The notes beneath the pieces were generated by a model. That model had not been told where the DNA came from. It saw only the letters and a list, made by a program, of their open reading frames with translations, and made no database searches. Shown piece by piece: positions 16,913-64,000 of a DNA stretch of 64,000 nt. The first letter of the stretch is position 1, and every line of letters starts with the position of its first letter. A program made the position numbers and the translations under genes. This DNA comes from an uncultured Myxococcales bacterium (lineage in GTDB: Bacteria > Desulfobacterota > Binatia > UBA1149 > CAYXZP01): assembly GCA_964469485.1 (NCBI GenBank), contig CAYXZP010000001.1, positions 3,660 to 67,659 on the forward strand, in the 5' to 3' direction.

Positions 16913-17623
16913 ATGAAGGACAAGTTTGCCTGCGCGGCGATAGAAACGCTGGCCGCCAGGGCCGATGAACGCGGCCTGTCGGTTCTCTCGGACGCCGAGC
17001 TGGTCGCCCTGGTGGCCGTCGGGCCGGCGGCCCCGGCCTCCTCGTACAGGTCCGGCCTGCTTGCCGCCGAGGGCCTGCTCGAAAGCAGCGGCGGGGTCCG
17101 CAGGGTCCTCGGACTGGCGCGGCCGGCCGCAAGCGAATCCTTCGGGTCTGCTGGCGCGCTCGTGCTCGCGGCCGCGGCCGAACTCGGGCGGCGGGCGGCA
17201 GCCTCGGCGCTGGGCCGCGGGGTGCGATTGCTCTCCTCGCGCAGCGTTGCCGGGCATTTCGGCCCCTTGCTCGCGGCCGAGCCGAGAGAACTTTTCTACG
17301 CCTTGCTCGTCGATACGCGCAACCGGCTGATCAGCAAGGTGCGTGTTTCGGAGGGTTCCCTGGCCGCCTCGCTGGTGCATCCCCGCGAGGCTTTCGCGCA
17401 TGCCGTGCGAGCGGCGGCTGCAGCCGTGATCTTTCTCCACAATCATCCGAGCGGCGACCCCGAGCCGAGCCGGGAGGACCGGCGGCTCACCGAACGGCTG
17501 GTTGCCGGCGGGCGCCTGCTCGGGATACCCGTGCTAGACCACGTCGTGGTCGCCGGCGATGCCCACTATTCGTTCGCCGACCATGGCGAAATTGGAACCG
17601 GGCGGGCCGGCACGGCGGCCTGA
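16913..17623 (+). CDS. radC: RadC-family JAB/MPN domain protein
   Basis: HNHPSGDPEPSREDRRLT JAMM motif. Confidence 0.85.
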   Translation: MKDKFACAAIETLAARADERGLSVLSDAELVALVAVGPAAPASSYRSGLLAAEGLLESSGGVRRVLGLARPAASESFGSAGALVLAAAAELGRRAAASALGRGVRLLSSRSVAGHFGPLLAAEPRELFYALLVDTRNRLISKVRVSEGSLAASLVHPREAFAHAVRAAAAAVIFLHNHPSGDPEPSREDRRLTERLVAGGRLLGIPVLDHVVVAGDAHYSFADHGEIGTGRAGTAA

Positions 17624-60548: not shown

Positions 60549-60995
60549 TCAGCGATGCTCCGGATGGGCGAGCGGGGGCAGGCGGACGATGCTGCCGCGG
60601 GCGACGCCGTGACGAGCCGCCAGGCCCGCGCCCACCTCCAGCACGTAACGGGCCGGCCCCGCCGAGGCGATGGGCTCGCCGGAGTAAGGACGGGTATCGT
60701 GAGCGACCGAGACGACCCGGCGATCGCGGGAGATAAAGATGATGTCGAGCGGCACGGGCGTGTTCTTCATCCAGAACACTCGTGTCTCGTCGTCGTCGAA
60801 GACGAACAGCATGCCGCTCGTTTCCGCGAGGCTCTCGCGCCACATGAGGCCGCGGCGTCTGGCCTCTGGCGTGGCCGCGACCTCGACGCTGACGCTGAGC
60901 TCTCCGGCGTTTCCCTCTATGGCCACAGTAGCGGCGGGCCGTCCCGTGCAGGACGCCGCCGACAGGCCAAGCGAGAGTGCTGCGGAGGCGGCCAT
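60549..60995 (-). CDS. DUF192-domain lipoprotein
   Basis: MAASAALSLGLSAASC lipobox. FVFDDDETRVFWMKNTPVPLDIIFI matches the DUF192 core. The ORF-track 450-aa ORF extends spuriously upstream. Confidence 0.6.
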   Translation of the reverse strand: MAASAALSLGLSAASCTGRPAATVAIEGNAGELSVSVEVAATPEARRRGLMWRESLAETSGMLFVFDDDETRVFWMKNTPVPLDIIFISRDRRVVSVAHDTRPYSGEPIASAGPARYVLEVGAGLAARHGVARGSIVRLPPLAHPEHR

Positions 60996-61058
60996 GACCG
61001 ATTGCAAGGCTGTCCTGGCCACGGTTAAATCCCGACCGCTGTCGAAGGAGGAGATGCG

Positions 61059-63077
61059 GTGAGCCCTATCATATGGTCGCTGGTCCTGTTGGCATACCTG
61101 GCGCTGTTCGGTTGGCAGGTCTTCCGCCGCCTGCGTGTGCTTTTCAAGGTTCGTTCGGCGGCCCGCTTCGACCGTATCGGTGAGCGCATCACCAAGACCC
61201 TGGTATACGCCTTCGGCCAGCTCAAGTTCTTCCGCGGCGAACAGCCGGCCGGAATCATCCACGCCCTGGTCTTCTGGGGCTTTCTGGTGCTGGGGGCCCA
61301 GGTGATGACGATGTTCCTGCGTGGTTGGGCCCCCGAGGCCCACCTGCCGCTGCTCGGCCCCGAGCTTCTCGGAGGGCCCTACATGCTCGTTCGCGACCTC
61401 ATGGAGGCCATCGTTCTGGTCTGCGCGCTGGTCCTCTTGGCCCGTTGGTTGGTGACGCACCCGCCACGGCTCATGGGTTTCAAGCCCGCCGAGACCAAAC
61501 TGGCCGGCCAGTCCCATTGGGAGGCTGTCCTTATCCTGTGCTTCATCTCCGCGATCATGATCACCGGCATGATCTACGACGGTGGACGGATGGTCTTCCT
61601 CCAGGGCAACCCCGTCATCGAGGCTGAGCGTCCCTGGCAGCCGGTCGCCGGTATCGCCGCCTCGTTCATGTCCGGCTCGGGAAACCATGCCGCGCGTACG
61701 GCAAGCGACGTCTCGTGGTGGATACACAATCTGGTCGTGCTGACTTTCCTCAACTTGCTGCCGCTGTCCAAACACTTCCACGTGATAACGGCCATCCCGA
61801 ATGTTTTCTTCAGCAAACTCGAGCCGGCCGGCCAGCTTTCCAAGCAGGACCTGGACCTCGATTCGGACGACGCGATATTCGGCACCTCGCAGATGCGCCA
61901 CTTCGACTGGAAGCAGGTGCTCGACATGTTCAGCTGCACCGAGTGCGGGCGTTGTTCCGAGCAGTGTCCGGCCACCTCGACCGACAAGCCGCTGGCGCCG
62001 CGCCAGATGTTGCTCGACCTGCGCGACTTCCTCTACGAGAAACCCGAATCGGTCCTCGACCGGTCCTTCGACGAAGCCGTGGTCGGCGAGAACTGCGTGA
62101 CCGAGGAGGTCCTGTGGTCATGCACGACCTGCCGCGCCTGCGAGGACGCCTGTCCGGTGCACATCGAGTACGTGGACAAGATCGTCGACATGCGGCGCCA
62201 CTTGGTCCAGGAGCAGGCCAGTTTTCCCGAGGAACTCGGCCGCACCTTCCGCGGCATGGAGACCCACAGCAATCCCTGGGGAATAGGCGCCGATAAACGG
62301 GCCGACTGGGCCGAAGGGCTCGACATCCCGCTACTGTCGGAGAACCCGGATGCCGAATATCTGTTCTACGTCGGCTGTGCGGGCTCCTTCGACGACCGCG
62401 CCAAGAGGATCACCCAGGCTGTGGCCACCATCCTCACGAAGGCCGGCGTGAGCTTTGCGATCCTCGGCAAGGACGAGCCCTGCAACGGGGACACGGCCCG
62501 CCGGCTCGGTAACGAGTACCTCTACCAGACCATGGCCGGCATGGCCGTCGAGGTGCTGGCGGGTCACAACGTCAAGAAGGTGATCACCAACTGTCCGCAC
62601 TGTTTCAACACGATCAAGAACGAATTTCCGCAGTTCGACGGTAACTACGAGGTCGTACACGGCTCCGAGTTGGTCGCCGGGCTCGTTCGCGAGGGCAGGG
62701 TGCGCCTAGGTAAGGAGGCGGCCAAGACCATCGTCTACCACGACTCATGTTATCTCGGCCGCTACAACGAGGTCTACGACGCCCCCCGCCAGCTGCTCGA
62801 GGCCATCCCCGGTGTCATTCTCAAGGAAGCCGATCGCAGCCGTAACACGGGCATGTGCTGTGGCGCCGGTGGCGGCCGTATGTGGATCGAGGAGGACCCC
62901 TCTCAGCGCGTGAACTCACTACGTGTGGAACAGCTGTTGGAGACAGAGCCCGACGTCATCGCCTCGGCCTGTCCCTACTGCATGACCATGCTCGACGACG
63001 GCGTGAAGGCCAAGGAGCTAGAAGGCCGGGTCGACACCCGCGATATCCTCGAGATCGTCGCTGCCGCGATTTCCTGA
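61059..63077 (+). CDS. Membrane-anchored Fe-S oxidoreductase: N-terminal multi-TM His-rich (cytochrome b/NarI-like) domain fused to a 2x[4Fe-4S] + double CCG-domain (HdrD/DsrK/GlpC-like) module
   Basis: TM helices with conserved His. CTECGRCSEQCP and CTTCRACEDACP ferredoxin motifs. Two CCG domains (CPHCFN...DSCY and MCCGAGGG...ACPYCM). Confidence 0.75.
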   Translation: MSPIIWSLVLLAYLALFGWQVFRRLRVLFKVRSAARFDRIGERITKTLVYAFGQLKFFRGEQPAGIIHALVFWGFLVLGAQVMTMFLRGWAPEAHLPLLGPELLGGPYMLVRDLMEAIVLVCALVLLARWLVTHPPRLMGFKPAETKLAGQSHWEAVLILCFISAIMITGMIYDGGRMVFLQGNPVIEAERPWQPVAGIAASFMSGSGNHAARTASDVSWWIHNLVVLTFLNLLPLSKHFHVITAIPNVFFSKLEPAGQLSKQDLDLDSDDAIFGTSQMRHFDWKQVLDMFSCTECGRCSEQCPATSTDKPLAPRQMLLDLRDFLYEKPESVLDRSFDEAVVGENCVTEEVLWSCTTCRACEDACPVHIEYVDKIVDMRRHLVQEQASFPEELGRTFRGMETHSNPWGIGADKRADWAEGLDIPLLSENPDAEYLFYVGCAGSFDDRAKRITQAVATILTKAGVSFAILGKDEPCNGDTARRLGNEYLYQTMAGMAVEVLAGHNVKKVITNCPHCFNTIKNEFPQFDGNYEVVHGSELVAGLVREGRVRLGKEAAKTIVYHDSCYLGRYNEVYDAPRQLLEAIPGVILKEADRSRNTGMCCGAGGGRMWIEEDPSQRVNSLRVEQLLETEPDVIASACPYCMTMLDDGVKAKELEGRVDTRDILEIVAAAIS

Positions 63078-63080
63078 CGC

Positions 63081-63166
63081 GGACCCGAGTTAGCGAGGGT
63101 TCGCGGTCCGCTCTGGGACCCGAGTTAGCGAGGGTTCGCGGTCCGCTCTGGGACCCGAGTTAGCGC
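63081..63166 (+). repeat. Tandem direct repeat, 35-bp unit x about 2.5 copies
   Basis: GGACCCGAGTTAGCGAGGGTTCGCGGTCCGCTCT at 63081-63115 and 63116-63150, plus a partial copy at 63151-63166. The unit contains a GGTCC...GGACC inverted pair. Confidence 0.85.
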
Positions 63167-63200
63167 TTGACATAGCTCCAACCCGTGCTAATGTGCACAC
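63167..63200 (+). promoter_or_regulatory. Putative sigma70 promoter and palindromic operator of arsR
   Basis: TTGACA at 63167-63172, 16-nt spacer, TAATGT at 63189-63194, and a perfect palindrome TGTGCACA just downstream. The ATG at 63201 suggests a leaderless or near-leaderless transcript. Confidence 0.4.
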
Positions 63201-63557
63201 ATGTCCACGGTTGCTGAGGCAGCACTGGCCGACTGCGGTCCTCGGGAGAAGGCCGTGTCCGAGGTCCGTCAGTTCCTACACGGAGAGCTGTTCGCGGCCC
63301 TGGCCGACCCGGCCCGGCGCGAGGTGATCTTGCTGCTCGGCCTGGAGGGCGAGCTTAATGCGGGGGCCATCTCGGCCCGTTTCGGACTCGACCGGACCAC
63401 GGTTTCTCGTCACCTCGGCCGGCTGACGGCTGCCGGGCTCATCGCTCGACGCAAGGTCGGCCGCGAGGTTCTATACCGCCTGGAGGCCGACACGATCACG
63501 GGGCAGCTCGAAGGTCTCGTAACGGGGCTCAAGACCCACTGCCGGGATTGTTGCTGA
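63201..63557 (+). CDS. arsR: ArsR/SmtB-family metalloregulatory transcriptional repressor
   Basis: Winged-helix DRTTVSRHLGRLTAAGLI. C-terminal Cys cluster HCRDCC. Confidence 0.8.
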   Translation: MSTVAEAALADCGPREKAVSEVRQFLHGELFAALADPARREVILLLGLEGELNAGAISARFGLDRTTVSRHLGRLTAAGLIARRKVGREVLYRLEADTITGQLEGLVTGLKTHCRDCC

Positions 63558-63578
63558 CCCGGTCAAAGGAAGGAGTTC

Positions 63579-64000
63579 ATGATGAACACCAACGCTTTTC
63601 ACGTTTCCGTTTATGTGGACGACATAGACAAGGCTGTGACCGACTATAGCCGCCTGCTCGGCATCGAGCCGGCCAAGGTCAAGCACGACTATGCCAAGTT
63701 CGAACTAGAGGACCCGCCCGTGGTCTTCTCACTCAACGTCGGGGGAGAGCCGGGCGCTCTGAGCCACTTCGGCATTCGCTATGGCAGCTCGGGCGAACTT
63801 GCCACCGAGCGCATCCGTCTGAAGAACGGCGGGGTCGAGACCTTGGAGCAGGCCGATGCCACCTGCTGCTACGCCAGTGCCGAGAAGGTGTGGGCGCTCG
63901 ACGGCAGCGGTGTGGCTTGGGAGCTGTACGCGGTGACAGAGGCCGATGTCGAAACGGAAACGGCCGCCGACCCCGAGCTGCGCGAGCTTCTCGGTCAGTC
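63579..64000 (+). CDS. VOC-family protein resembling ArsI C-As lyase / CadI (3' end outside window)
   Basis: SD AAGGAAGGAG before the ATG at 63579. Glyoxalase-fold N-terminus. Vicinal cysteine pair in DATCCYA, as in ArsI-type enzymes. Confidence 0.55.
   Translation, partial: MMNTNAFHVSVYVDDIDKAVTDYSRLLGIEPAKVKHDYAKFELEDPPVVFSLNVGGEPGALSHFGIRYGSSGELATERIRLKNGGVETLEQADATCCYASAEKVWALDGSGVAWELYAVTEADVETETAADPELRELLGQ

Follow-up and report, generated by a model that had tools for sequence, protein, structure and literature searches.

Repressors of the SmtB/ArsR family are known to recognize imperfect inverted repeats of 12-2-12 form that lie on the start site or close to it (PMC8790569). The position of the cysteines responsible for arsenic sensing differs among the described ArsR types: in the Type 1 protein of R773, they form a Cys32-x-Cys34-x2-Cys37 site in the DNA-binding region of helix alpha3, while AfArsR (Type 2, from Acidithiobacillus ferrooxidans) and the MAs(III)-selective SpArsR from Shewanella putrefaciens, which has two such residues, sense through C-terminal cysteines (PMC11868830). 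In the autoregulated arsRMC operon of Arsenicibacter rosenii, the operator of ArArsR overlaps the promoter, and the conserved C-terminal Cys107-Cys108 pair of this repressor is dispensable for sensing (PMC11868830). As for the enzymes, the C-As lyase ArsI (Bacillus sp. MD1; TcArsI of Thermomonospora curvata, PDB 5C4P) is a protein with a single VOC domain, whose gene adjoins arsR; it cleaves MAs(III) or aromatic As(III) in a reaction dependent on Fe(II) and O2. CadI (Rv2641) of Mycobacterium tuberculosis, a member of the same NCBIfam family (ArsI_CadI_VOC), is encoded next to an ArsR-family gene.

The locus analyzed here closes a window of 64 kb (the whole stretch of DNA under study) from an uncultured marine bacterium, Binatia-like and related to Candidatus Binatia. 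The pairing of arsR with an ArsI-type gene is in itself of an ordinary kind, i.e., an arsenic sensor accompanied by a detoxifying enzyme. Judging from the sequence, the locus is likely to represent an autoregulated operon of two genes, arsR and, behind it, one of the arsI/cadI family, embedded between an etfD-like gene and the convergent etfAB genes. The etfD-like gene (61,059–63,077, plus strand) has the same direction as arsR and codes for a 672-aa membrane Fe-S/CCG oxidoreductase with two Pfam CCG domains and a 4Fe-4S dicluster domain, sharing 73% identity with the product of the syntenic gene in a Ca. Binatia MAG; its stop codon lies 3 nt ahead of the array of tandem repeats discussed below. 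The original prediction had called for a check of the gene content beyond the window: etfA and etfB were found downstream, in convergent orientation, which would limit the operon to two genes. Moreover, the distance between the arsR stop codon and the start of the VOC gene is of 21 nt, which argues for a single operon. The neighbors are metabolic genes (the etfD-like gene, etfAB, and a carboxylase). A recent horizontal transfer was considered and discarded, as the GC content of the arsR-VOC region (0.61–0.67) is like that of the flanks, with no anomaly. All the sequence features described in the original prediction were found in the window, some of them with the amendments given hereinafter.

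The arsR gene (63,201–63,557, plus strand) codes for a 118-aa ArsR/SmtB repressor, which matched the NF033788 model with 72.7 bits (cut-off 55) and both the HTH_20 and HTH_5 Pfam models above their gathering scores. The fold of its AF2 model (mean pLDDT 87.8) matches those of SrnR, AfArsR, and SmtB, with AfArsR (6j05) among the top structures (TMq 0.67). Its cysteines are Cys12 and the C-terminal Cys114, Cys117, and Cys118, none being present between residues 13 and 113; in the model, helix alpha5 comprises residues 96–114, Cys114 is placed at its C-terminal end, and the cluster as a whole lies at or after the end of the helix. The C-terminal HCRDCC sequence and the lack of the N-terminal CVC site, both pointed out earlier, were thus observed: the segment ELNAGAISARFG aligns at the alpha3 position of the R773 segment ELCVCDLC and is devoid of cysteines. 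Accordingly, the ArsR of the window does not possess the Type 1 site. Neither does it possess that of Type 3 (CgArsR; Cys15-Cys16 plus Cys55 of the other monomer), having a single N-terminal cysteine (Cys12), no vicinal pair in that part, and no cysteine at the position equivalent to 55.

The protein may be compared with Type 2, whose site consists of Cys95, Cys96, and Cys102 of a single subunit, where its C-terminal dimerization helix ends. It shares with AfArsR the ArsR/SmtB winged-helix fold, the absence of cysteines from the DNA-binding helix region, the position of the (here putative) sensing cysteines at or after the C-terminal end of the dimerization helix alpha5, and the organization in an ars operon that is autoregulated, as predicted in our case (PMC11868830). 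The order and spacing of the cysteines are different, though, with Cys-x2-Cys-Cys at the extreme C-terminus instead of Cys95-Cys96-x5-Cys102, and the identity between the two proteins is about 29%; in the alignment with 6j05, residue 95 of AfArsR comes some four positions ahead of Cys114. The C-terminal ligands also recall SpArsR, so that a cluster originally regarded as unusual has at least these two precedents (PMC11868830). The members of the clade with two C-terminal cysteines resemble the two-coordinate site of SpArsR and are linked to arsM, not to arsI, whereas the ArsR of the window has three of them, and MAs(III) selectivity is not predicted for it. Cys114 is the sole cysteine invariant in the clade; the arsM-linked members have just two C-terminal ones. 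Given that the Cys107-Cys108 pair of ArArsR is dispensable, sensing may not depend on the HCRDCC cluster. A specifically organoarsenical ligand, envisaged in the original prediction, is possible, and so is As(III).

Upstream of arsR, direct reading revealed a -35 hexamer, TTGACA (63,167–63,172, plus strand), and an extended -10 element, TGcTAATGT (63,186–63,194, plus strand). The TAATGT hexamer (63,189–63,194) corresponds to positions -12 to -7 from the A of the ATG and is separated from TTGACA by a 16-nt spacer, i.e., the TTGACA-16-TAATGT arrangement adjoining the array is just as it had been described. A scan with the sigma-70 consensus did not call this promoter, TAATGT matching TATAAT at three out of six positions; the hexamer fits TANNNT and is preceded by TGc, which gives an extended -10. 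In spite of the negative scan, the promoter was retained on the basis of the comparison with the orthologs, for which seven orthologous arsR loci, phylogenetically related and hence non-independent (ArsR proteins 54–69% identical), were aligned without gaps on the ATG. The seven loci share CTTG(AC) at -35, with CTTG invariant, and TGnTANNGT at positions -15 to -7, with GTGCTA..GT invariant.

In a leaderless mRNA, the A with which the start codon begins coincides with the transcription start or is a few nucleotides away from it, and a Shine-Dalgarno sequence is lacking. In each of the seven loci, the ATG is located exactly 6 nt past TANNGT and a Shine-Dalgarno sequence is absent; the extended -10 geometry places the A of the ATG at the predicted transcription start, and the arsR mRNA is therefore probably leaderless. 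The seven gap-free loci thus support the two features advanced from the single sequence, a leaderless transcript and an operator overlapping the promoter. Furthermore, the proteins of six ortholog clusters open with MST or MNT, the next 15 residues or so being variable, and the in-frame TAA/TAG within the -10 hexamer makes a longer upstream ORF impossible. A survey of the window retrieved four candidate starts with a leaderless geometry, a crude count that includes the spurious ORFs of high-GC DNA and is to be taken as a hint only.

The gene calls of NCBI/ENA place the start elsewhere, at a GTG (codon 19, 63,255) that has a GGGAG sequence (63,244–63,248) 6 nt ahead of it, and report a protein of 100 aa (P0001). 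According to this annotation, arsR would be a conventional, leadered gene, and the conserved block would represent its 5'-UTR. We consider this very unlikely, because neither the GTG nor its Shine-Dalgarno sequence is kept in the orthologs, all of which have a conserved ATG-TCN/AGC/AAC-ACG and a frame that is open from the ATG; moreover, with the -10 element fixed with respect to the ATG in 7/7 loci, the GTG would leave a 54-nt leader made up of conserved in-frame codons. If the ATG is the start, as we maintain, automatic gene callers trim 18 codons off the leaderless arsR.

The palindrome TGTGCACA (63,192–63,199) that had been noticed in front of the ATG is present, one base (C) separating it from the start codon at 63,201, but it represents merely the core of a larger element. 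This is a 26-bp imperfect 12-2-12 dyad, CGTGCTAATGTG-CA-CACATGTCCACG (63,184–63,209, positions -17 to +9), which also contains the start codon and is the predicted ArsR operator. Nine out of its 13 pairs are symmetric, a level reached by 0.3% of the window positions, and all seven orthologs have from seven to nine symmetric pairs out of 13 on the same axis. The column identity among the seven loci is 0.90 over the -17 to +9 region versus 0.60–0.67 in the flanks; the extended -10 and the start codon must by themselves account for part of this conservation. The third codon is ACG in the seven loci, while ACG represents just 34% of the Thr codons here. The match to the dyad is unique within the window. 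When a half-site matrix was built without the window, its two best hits in the 64 kb were the two halves of the dyad (19.5 and 19.1 bits), the next one scoring 12.7 bits. For the clade, the sequence of the putative operator can be written as (C)GTGCTArTGTG-yr-CACATGnnCACG, and in each of the seven members known this candidate site is the conserved element, its axis unchanged.

The dyad compares well with the operators of smtA, ziaA, and nmtA, which likewise are 26-bp imperfect 12-2-12 repeats placed over the -10/start-site region (PMC8790569). It differs from them in being unrelated to the TGAA/TTCA-type consensus and in that its right arm holds the start codon and codons 2 and 3 of the repressor's own leaderless gene. 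No paper linking the operator core TGTGTACACA to ArsR was retrieved from the literature.

The gene located downstream of arsR (63,579–64,000, plus strand) belongs to the ArsI/CadI-type VOC genes and is clipped by the end of the window. It is preceded by its own Shine-Dalgarno sequence, AAGGAG (63,570–63,575, plus strand), 3 nt before an ATG at 63,579 and 6 nt before another one at 63,582, either of which may be the start; the full-length protein, readable from an independent ENA scaffold (L003, positions 10325/10328-10777), has 149–150 aa. Its score with NF041414, a model that spans ArsI and CadI without separating them, is a near miss (113.6 bits vs. a cut-off of 116, i.e., 2.4 bits short), and its close relatives (57–62% identity) are named ArsI/CadI family by NCBI. 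The comparison with TcArsI (5c4p) gave an E-value of 1.3e-20 and 35% identity. The vicinal cysteines of the DATCCYA sequence, on which the original assignment to an ArsI-like protein had been based, are Cys96-Cys97; they align to Cys98-Cys99 of TcArsI, the pair to which the trivalent organoarsenical binds, are invariant among 27 aligned sequences, and, together with the TcArsI match, sustain that assignment.

The Fe(II) triad of ArsI, whose verification had been recommended, was recovered in part: numbering from the first ATG, His63 and Glu115 align exactly to His65 and Glu117 of TcArsI, but the first ligand is His8 rather than Gln8 (PMC6138428). This His8 is nearly invariant within the protein's own, well-populated environmental subfamily. 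Histidine is a competent metal ligand in VOC dioxygenases. Thus, as in ArsI, we find a single VOC domain next to arsR, in which the cysteine pair and the His and Glu ligands correspond residue for residue (PMC6138428); the differences are the histidine at position 8, the limited overall identity, and the score below the family cut-off. With its putative His-His-Glu metal site and vicinal cysteine pair, the VOC protein is most likely an enzyme that, like ArsI, attacks trivalent arsenicals and breaks their C-As bond.

As far as the distribution of the repressor is concerned, a protein search on 5.8 billion clusters, in which 8,000 word-filtered candidates were scored, returned at least seven above 187 bits, the next best scoring 84; the sole named genome among the seven clusters is the Ca. 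Binatia MAG. A profile protein search added only one ortholog (P0007). The scan of genomes for further orthologs retrieved the Ca. Binatia MAG alone, the remaining hits being generic ArsR proteins from Firmicutes, and no close relative was found among the matches listed by the metagenome scan. Within this small ArsR clade, four relatives have a true arsM as the partner gene, and two have a VOC gene. The arsM of L011 and L007 matched NF008823 with 321 and 306 bits, respectively (cut-off 263), L013 and L175 have arsM fragments 3' of arsR, and L006 has a VOC gene in the same position. The finding that orthologs of the repressor lie directly upstream of true arsM genes in four relatives favors the metalloid-responsive pair hypothesized in the original prediction, and a clade of repressors that would control arsM supports, in turn, arsenic sensing. 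The order arsR-arsM of L011 and L007 is the same as in arsRMC, where arsR also comes first; the window has a VOC gene where arsRMC has arsM. The two systems also differ in the cysteines (Cys41/80/82 in ArArsR) and in the operator, which lies over the -35 in ArArsR and over the -10/start site here.

One may wonder whether the pair handles a thiophilic metal, Cd(II) or Pb(II), in a CadI/CmtR-like manner, or some other electrophile, rather than arsenicals. The model under whose cut-off the VOC protein just falls includes CadI, the first metal ligand is a histidine and not the glutamine of the characterized ArsI, and the repressor weakly matches the CmtR and Rv2640c families of M. tuberculosis. 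However, these last matches fail both models widely (40.5 vs. a cut-off of 150 for CmtR and 41.9 vs. 155 for Rv2640c), the vicinal cysteine pair and the other two ligands coincide with the arsenical site of TcArsI, and four of the orthologous repressors, which share the operator, appear to control a true arsenite methyltransferase. On the whole, a role in Cd/Pb response is unlikely, and we keep arsenicals as the probable substrates and inducers of the pair.

The least informative component of the locus is the 35-bp tandem repeat. The array (63,081–63,165) is a minisatellite of 2.4 perfect copies (period 35, 100% matches) and, with a TRF score of 170, it is the top-scoring tandem repeat of the 64-kb window, the runner-up scoring 58. 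The unit is GGACCCGAGTTAGCGAGGGTTCGCGGTCCGCTCTG, and the trailing partial copy, GGACCCGAGTTAGCG, ends 1 nt short of the -35 hexamer. Two full copies plus a partial one had been correctly recognized, as had the GGTCC/GGACC inverted pair inside the unit; the partial copy, however, is of 15 nt and not 16, the copies are 2.4 and not 2.5, and the unit had been given without its final G. Inverted GGACC/GGTCC motifs occur in every unit and at every unit junction. Shuffled windows gave no match to the unit in any shuffle, and no further copy was found elsewhere in the 64-kb window.

An assembly artifact as the source of the array can be ruled out: the independent scaffold L003 carries an identical 2.4-copy array with both flanks attached, a MEGAHIT k127 contig (L005) carries the same array attached to the downstream flank only, and the break in three Logan k31 contigs falls 30 nt short of the array end, as expected with at least two full copies. 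Moreover, among the MEGAHIT k127 contigs of one sample, L179 stops exactly at the last base of the array and L005 begins exactly at the first one, a pattern expected if alleles with 2.4 copies and with 3.4 copies or more coexist. Judged from contig ends rather than reads, this suggests that the copy number of the array varies within one sample or population.

Five orthologous loci (L007, L011, L013, L014, and L175) lack the array, among them that of Ca. Binatia, which is fully syntenic. In L006, the same spacer holds a degenerate 39-bp repeat (2.1 copies) unrelated to the 35-bp unit; a homology between the two was rejected, as the units, compared by eye side by side, show no resemblance. Other origins were also discarded. 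A dispersed repeat (REP/MITE) is contradicted by the absence of either half of the unit from the rest of the 64-kb window and from about 9.5 kb (L003) to 10 kb (L004) downstream. Regarding integron attC/cassette signals, GTTAGCG does not match GTTRRRY, and the exchange between VOC and arsM takes place 3' of arsR, not at the array. A search of the spacer against Rfam gave no RNA family or riboswitch match at E ≤ 1.

Iterons are sets of several direct repeats to which the initiator binds, found at a replication origin that has a rep gene in its vicinity. According to the original prediction, the repeats could be additional binding sites or an iteron-like element modulating expression, and their absence in relatives with otherwise identical loci would speak against it; such an absence is what the five loci display. 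More generally, the repeats might be functional cis-elements, recognized by ArsR or another regulator, that tune the adjacent promoter. Their distance of a single nucleotide from the -35, the inverted motifs in units and junctions, and the identity of the array across several independent samples, while the arsR of L001 has synonymous SNPs, would fit such a role. Nevertheless, the best operator half-site inside the array scores -2.6 bits, compared with about 19 at the real site, the sequence of the array does not resemble that of the conserved dyad, and a 35-bp period corresponds to a non-integer number of helical turns. An iteron, in particular, is at odds with only 2.4 copies and with the metabolic nature of the neighbors, no replication or partition gene having been found nearby. 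Identical copies with an apparently variable number are, for their part, what recent slippage would leave, and we consider a cis-acting function of the repeats quite improbable. Taken together, these data indicate that the array looks like a young, lineage-specific slippage minisatellite, neither an iteron nor an extra ArsR site, and that it would lie outside the arsenic switch. Selection could also explain why it is perfectly conserved in four samples or more.

A further possibility is that the repeats act as RNA, in that stacked GC hairpins would terminate or stabilize the etfD-like transcript and shield the leaderless promoter from read-through. A GC-rich hairpin with a 9-bp stem (63,078–63,105, plus strand), formed by the flanking CGC and the first repeat unit, directly follows the etfD-like stop codon, with an RNA fold of -20 kcal/mol; the whole spacer folds at -58.5 kcal/mol (z = -2.5). 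A GC hairpin after the stop is also found in the orthologous spacers of L011, L175, and L014, and read-through would yield the VOC protein, translated from its own Shine-Dalgarno sequence, free of ArsR control. An intrinsic terminator consists of a GC-rich stem-loop followed by a U-tract; here the stem is present, but the T-run is absent and the terminator scanner called none, so that this candidate was rejected. In addition, the single units have weak z-scores (first unit, -1.6; second unit, +1.1), and the relatives manage with a single hairpin, whose duplication needs no function. We therefore regard a role as RNA as conceivable but doubtful.

If the array is a slippage minisatellite, as we favor, it would have arisen by duplication of a spacer that carried a hairpin 3' of the etfD-like stop codon, and the greatest effect it might have would be that of added hairpins lowering the read-through into the operon. 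It is like other bacterial intergenic minisatellites (VNTRs) in being a perfect head-to-tail array with a period of tens of bp, located in a spacer and flanked by a partial copy, and in the apparent copy-number differences within the population. Unlike in classical phase-variable promoters, it is placed 5' of the -35, and its copy number leaves the spacing of the promoter elements unchanged. It is highly improbable, though worth mentioning, that the minisatellite is a contingency locus, in which slippage alters the number of GC hairpins that separate an etfD-like gene under constitutive transcription from the leaderless promoter gated by ArsR; were this true, strains of the same population would differ in the ArsR-independent, read-through expression of the ArsI-like enzyme. 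Better supported than this is the idea that the putative operator runs into the first three codons of arsR, so that DNA binding would constrain the N-terminal MST of the protein.

The arsenic switch probably operates as follows. An ArsR dimer sitting on the dyad would make the -10 element and the start site inaccessible. The inducer, As(III) and/or MAs(III), would be bound by the thiolates of Cys114, Cys117, and Cys118, at the end of alpha5 and in the C-terminal tail, as in AfArsR; the repressor, once loaded with the arsenical, would leave the DNA, and the leaderless arsR mRNA would be made. After derepression, the VOC protein would be translated from its own Shine-Dalgarno sequence.

With this locus, the known ArsR types are joined by a small branch of probable arsenic repressors, specific to one clade and bearing a C-terminal Cys-x2-Cys-Cys site. 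Comparing the relatives is enough to read the predicted operator of this branch, which might be of use in the design of biosensors. Finally, the same regulatory module, in the same chromosomal position, precedes either arsM, for methylation, or an ArsI-like gene, for demethylation; this, in turn, suggests that related marine bacteria may hold opposite roles in the methylarsenic cycle.

The arsR gene (63201–63557, plus strand) codes for a 118-residue protein of the ArsR/SmtB family, which ends in HCRDCC and scores 72.7 bits with NF033788 (cut-off 55). On the same strand, it is preceded by a -35 hexamer TTGACA (63167–63172), a 16-nt spacer, a -10 hexamer TAATGT (63189–63194) and the palindrome TGTGCACA (63192–63199), followed by one C and by the ATG at 63201; a consensus scanner called neither a promoter nor a terminator in the region from the array to arsR. 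The public gene calls (NCBI, ENA and Logan) start the protein at a GTG (codon 19) behind GGGAG, yielding a 100-residue database form and losing 18 codons (63201–63254), Cys12 among them. Neither this GTG nor its Shine–Dalgarno sequence is conserved among the seven loci compared. The six orthologue clusters all start with MST or MNT and then diverge over ~15 residues, and the seven upstream regions, when anchored on the conserved ATG, align without gaps: they share CTTG(AC) at -35, then GTGCTAnnGT, corresponding to an extended -10 (TGnTANNGT at -15 to -7), and GTGyrCAC reaching up to the ATG. No ORF start further upstream is possible, since in-frame TAA/TAG triplets lie within the hexamer. No Shine–Dalgarno sequence precedes the arsR ATG, which is probably why the callers miss it.

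In the standard sigma-70 geometry, a hexamer at -12 to -7 sets the transcription start; this, in turn, would place the predicted start on the A of the ATG. A crude survey, in which many ORFs are spurious because of the high-GC DNA, retrieved only four candidate starts with leaderless geometry in the window; besides that of arsR, the single other one noted lies at 16913 (plus strand), where a 236-residue ORF has TAAGGT at -12 to -7 and a TTG at 18-nt spacing. Together with the strong Shine–Dalgarno sequence of the VOC gene, this scarcity suggests that the organism is not generally leaderless and that arsR represents a special case. The leaderless promoter with an overlapping operator, as depicted in the original prediction, is supported and sharpened by the seven-locus comparison.

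Indeed, TGTGCACA is the centre of a larger dyad, CGTGCTAATGTG-CA-CACATGTCCACG (63184–63209, i.e., -17 to +9), with 9 symmetric pairs out of 13. All seven loci have 7–9 of the 13 pairs on the identical axis, and the perfect 12-mer ATGTGTACACAT is present in two of them (L006 and L013). Column identity in the seven loci is 0.90 within the dyad versus 0.60–0.67 on either side. Moreover, when the half-site matrix was derived from the other six loci, leaving out the window, the two halves of this dyad ranked first and second over the 64 kb (19.5 and 19.1 bits; next hit, 12.7), and the full dyad pattern occurs nowhere else in the window. The 26-bp size and the position of the dyad fit the typical binding sites of SmtB/ArsR repressors, which are imperfect inverted repeats of 12-2-12 form lying close to the start site or on it (PMC8790569). 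From these sequence comparisons, we conclude that 63184–63209 is the predicted ArsR operator; ArsR bound there would block both the -10 hexamer and the start site. The dyad also enters the coding region: all seven loci use ACG as codon 3 (ACG represents 34% of the Thr codons in this genome), and in one of them (L007) Ser2 is encoded by AGC, which betters the symmetry. We infer that a constraint acting on the DNA explains, at least in part, why the N-terminal MST is conserved.

Concerning the sensor, three types of ArsR site have been defined (PMC11868830). The ArsR of the window has neither a Cys in the alpha3 region (Type 1, R773) nor an N-terminal vicinal Cys pair (Type 3, CgArsR). In the AlphaFold model (mean pLDDT 87.8), alpha5 spans residues 96–114, with Cys114 at its C-terminal end and Cys117-Cys118 within a four-residue tail; one of the best fold matches is AfArsR (6J05), whose alignment reaches Cys95 a few residues before Cys114. 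Both sequence and model bear out the C-terminal HCRDCC without an alpha3 Cys; as modelled, its placement is Type 2-like, although the order and spacing of the Cys residues differ from those of AfArsR. Only Cys114 is invariant in the ArsR clade. The proteins linked to a VOC gene have three C-terminal Cys (HCRDCC and HCEGCC; n = 2), while those linked to arsM have two, as C-x2-C or C-x3-C (HCLDCS, HCRDGCS, HCRNGCS and NCLDGCS; n = 4); the Cys number thus tracks the partner gene, which, with n = 7, may merely reflect phylogeny. As a caution on the role of this motif, a conserved C-terminal Cys pair of ArArsR proved dispensable (PMC11868830).

The VOC ORF begins 21 nt after the arsR stop codon, behind AAGGAG, contains DATCCYA and runs off the window. 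The full-length protein scores 113.6 bits with NF041414 (ArsI/CadI), 2.4 bits under the cut-off, and the best-matching solved structures are those of ArsI from Thermomonospora curvata (E = 1.3e-20, 35% identity). TcArsI binds Fe(II) through Gln8, His65 and Glu117 and arsenicals through Cys98-Cys99 (PMC6138428); these residues pair with His8, His63, Glu115 and Cys96-Cys97 of the VOC protein, the first ligand thus being His instead of Gln. The protein falls within a well-populated environmental subfamily of 187 clusters (E ≤ 1e-15), in which His63, Glu115 and the Cys pair never vary and His8 hardly does; several members, including Ca. Binatia ones, are named ArsI/CadI by NCBI. A triad-like set of residues aligns and the protein did not group with generic glyoxalases, contrary to what would have refuted the original proposal. 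Most of the aligned relatives (P0096–P0213) have, at the C-terminus, a variable extension of low complexity (15 to ~45 residues) ending in CC(V/A)P, a second vicinal pair absent from the VOC proteins of the window and of L006.

On an ENA scaffold bearing the same locus (L003), the VOC gene is complete (149–150 residues) and is followed, 15 nt on, by convergent etfA and etfB, with no further ars genes downstream, which suggests a two-gene operon. This is flanked by the gene for an EtfD-like membrane Fe-S/CCG protein and by the ETF genes, and the GC content is uniform throughout the region. Upstream of the etfD-like gene, a DUF192 gene lies on the minus strand (60549–61062), in the same orientation in L011 and L179; opposite to it, on L003 (7485–7808), the caller gave a 107-residue plus-strand ORF with no Pfam match. 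A mechanical 450-residue minus-strand ORF (60549–61901) extends into the etfD-like gene and is for the most part spurious.

When 5.8 billion protein clusters were searched with a profile (8,000 word-filtered candidates scored), seven ArsR clusters reached 187–210 bits, the next scoring ≤84 bits; by sequence, the protein is a member of a very small clade. The only genome of the GTDB species set to harbor this ArsR is a Candidatus Binatia MAG, which shares the entire neighbourhood (carboxyltransferase, OAD subunits, DUF192, EtfD-like (73% identical), arsR and etfAB); a metagenome scan gave no further close relatives among the matches listed. In four orthologous loci, the gene following arsR is arsM, full-length in L011 and L007 (NF008823, 321 and 306 bits; cut-off 263) and fragmentary in L013 and L175, while in L006, as in the window, it is an ArsI/CadI-type VOC gene. 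In L013 (420–1248), arsM was called as two pieces of 63 and 175 residues, the second matching only ArsM model positions 106–269, which could reflect a frameshift, a pseudogene or an assembly error. In L007 (263–1999) and in L008 and L009 (TARA/ENA marine contigs), arsR-arsM lies directly 3' of genes for a CpaM corrinoid-protein-associated methyltransferase (in L007, NF043040, 246 bits) and an HgcAB-like fusion (NF043039, 376 bits), so that a protein of unknown function related to mercury-methylation proteins adjoins an arsenic-methylation operon.

At a single chromosomal position, one predicted regulatory module thus appears to drive a methylating enzyme in some of these loci and a putatively demethylating one in others; of the evidence gathered here, this exchange speaks most strongly for a response of the sensor to arsenic. 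It supports the metalloid-responsive sensor–effector pair originally proposed; its possible organoarsenical specificity cannot be claimed, since three-Cys sites answer to both As(III) and MAs(III).

As for the repeats upstream of the promoter, direct reading confirmed the region as first described, except that the partial copy has 15 nt rather than 16. Tandem Repeats Finder gave a period of 35 and 2.4 copies at 63081–63165 (100% matches, score 170), by far the strongest tandem repeat of the window (runner-up, 58), ending 1 nt before TTGACA. The unit, taken whole or as either of its halves, is found nowhere else in the 64 kb nor in shuffles, and an Rfam search of the region gave no match. Searching for exact matches to the ArsR protein and to its 100-residue form retrieved contigs from several marine metagenomes; the identical 2.4-copy array is connected to both flanks on L003 and to the downstream flank only on L005. 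The array is real and common to the species. It is absent from the spacers of L011 (83 nt), L014 (64 nt) and L007 (49 nt) and from the visible spacer parts of L013 and L175. The same spacer in the closest relative, L006, harbors an unrelated, degenerate repeat (975–1055; 39 bp × 2.1, 79% matches), so that duplications seem to arise readily in this spacer in both VOC-linked lineages; a 7-bp × 2.6 repeat also lies at the stop codon of the etfD-like gene of L006.

Three Logan contigs (k = 31) start 30 nt before the end of the array; this break is expected if the 30-mer at a unit junction can be continued in two ways, and hence if the array has two full copies or more. In SRR5007147 (MEGAHIT, k127), L179 ends on the last base of the array and L005 begins on its first. 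Since the 85-bp array is shorter than k, the assembly would have passed through a single allele without interruption; contig ends at exactly both borders are expected of a 2.4-copy allele mixed with a longer one (at least 3.4 copies). From contig ends rather than reads, we infer that the copy number varies inside this population.

Together with the three bases before it, the first unit folds into a 9-bp GC stem immediately downstream of the stop codon of the etfD-like gene (-20 kcal/mol, z = -1.6), the second forms a weaker version, and the spacers of the relatives also have one GC hairpin after the stop. The whole spacer folds at z = -2.5 and no U-tract follows; a modest role of the array as an RNA-level insulator against read-through is possible and rather unlikely. 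That the repeats are additional binding sites, as originally suggested, is not supported: the best operator half-site within the array scores -2.6 bits and orthologous loci lack the array, which makes protein-binding iterons improbable indeed. The form X(15)-Y(20)-X-Y-X is what slippage between two direct repeats of 15 bp is expected to leave; this, together with identical copies, lineage specificity and apparent copy-number variation, points to a young minisatellite that arose by slippage and doubled the post-stop hairpin.

As read from the sequence, the system is composed of known kinds of parts, namely a putative autorepressor of the ArsR/SmtB family with its predicted 12-2-12 operator, an enzyme of ArsI/CadI type and, between the genes, a probable VNTR. 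What is noteworthy is the predicted operator reaching into the first codons of its own repressor, the variant Cys motif, the His that the enzyme has instead of Gln and the fact that arsM and arsI replace each other among the relatives.
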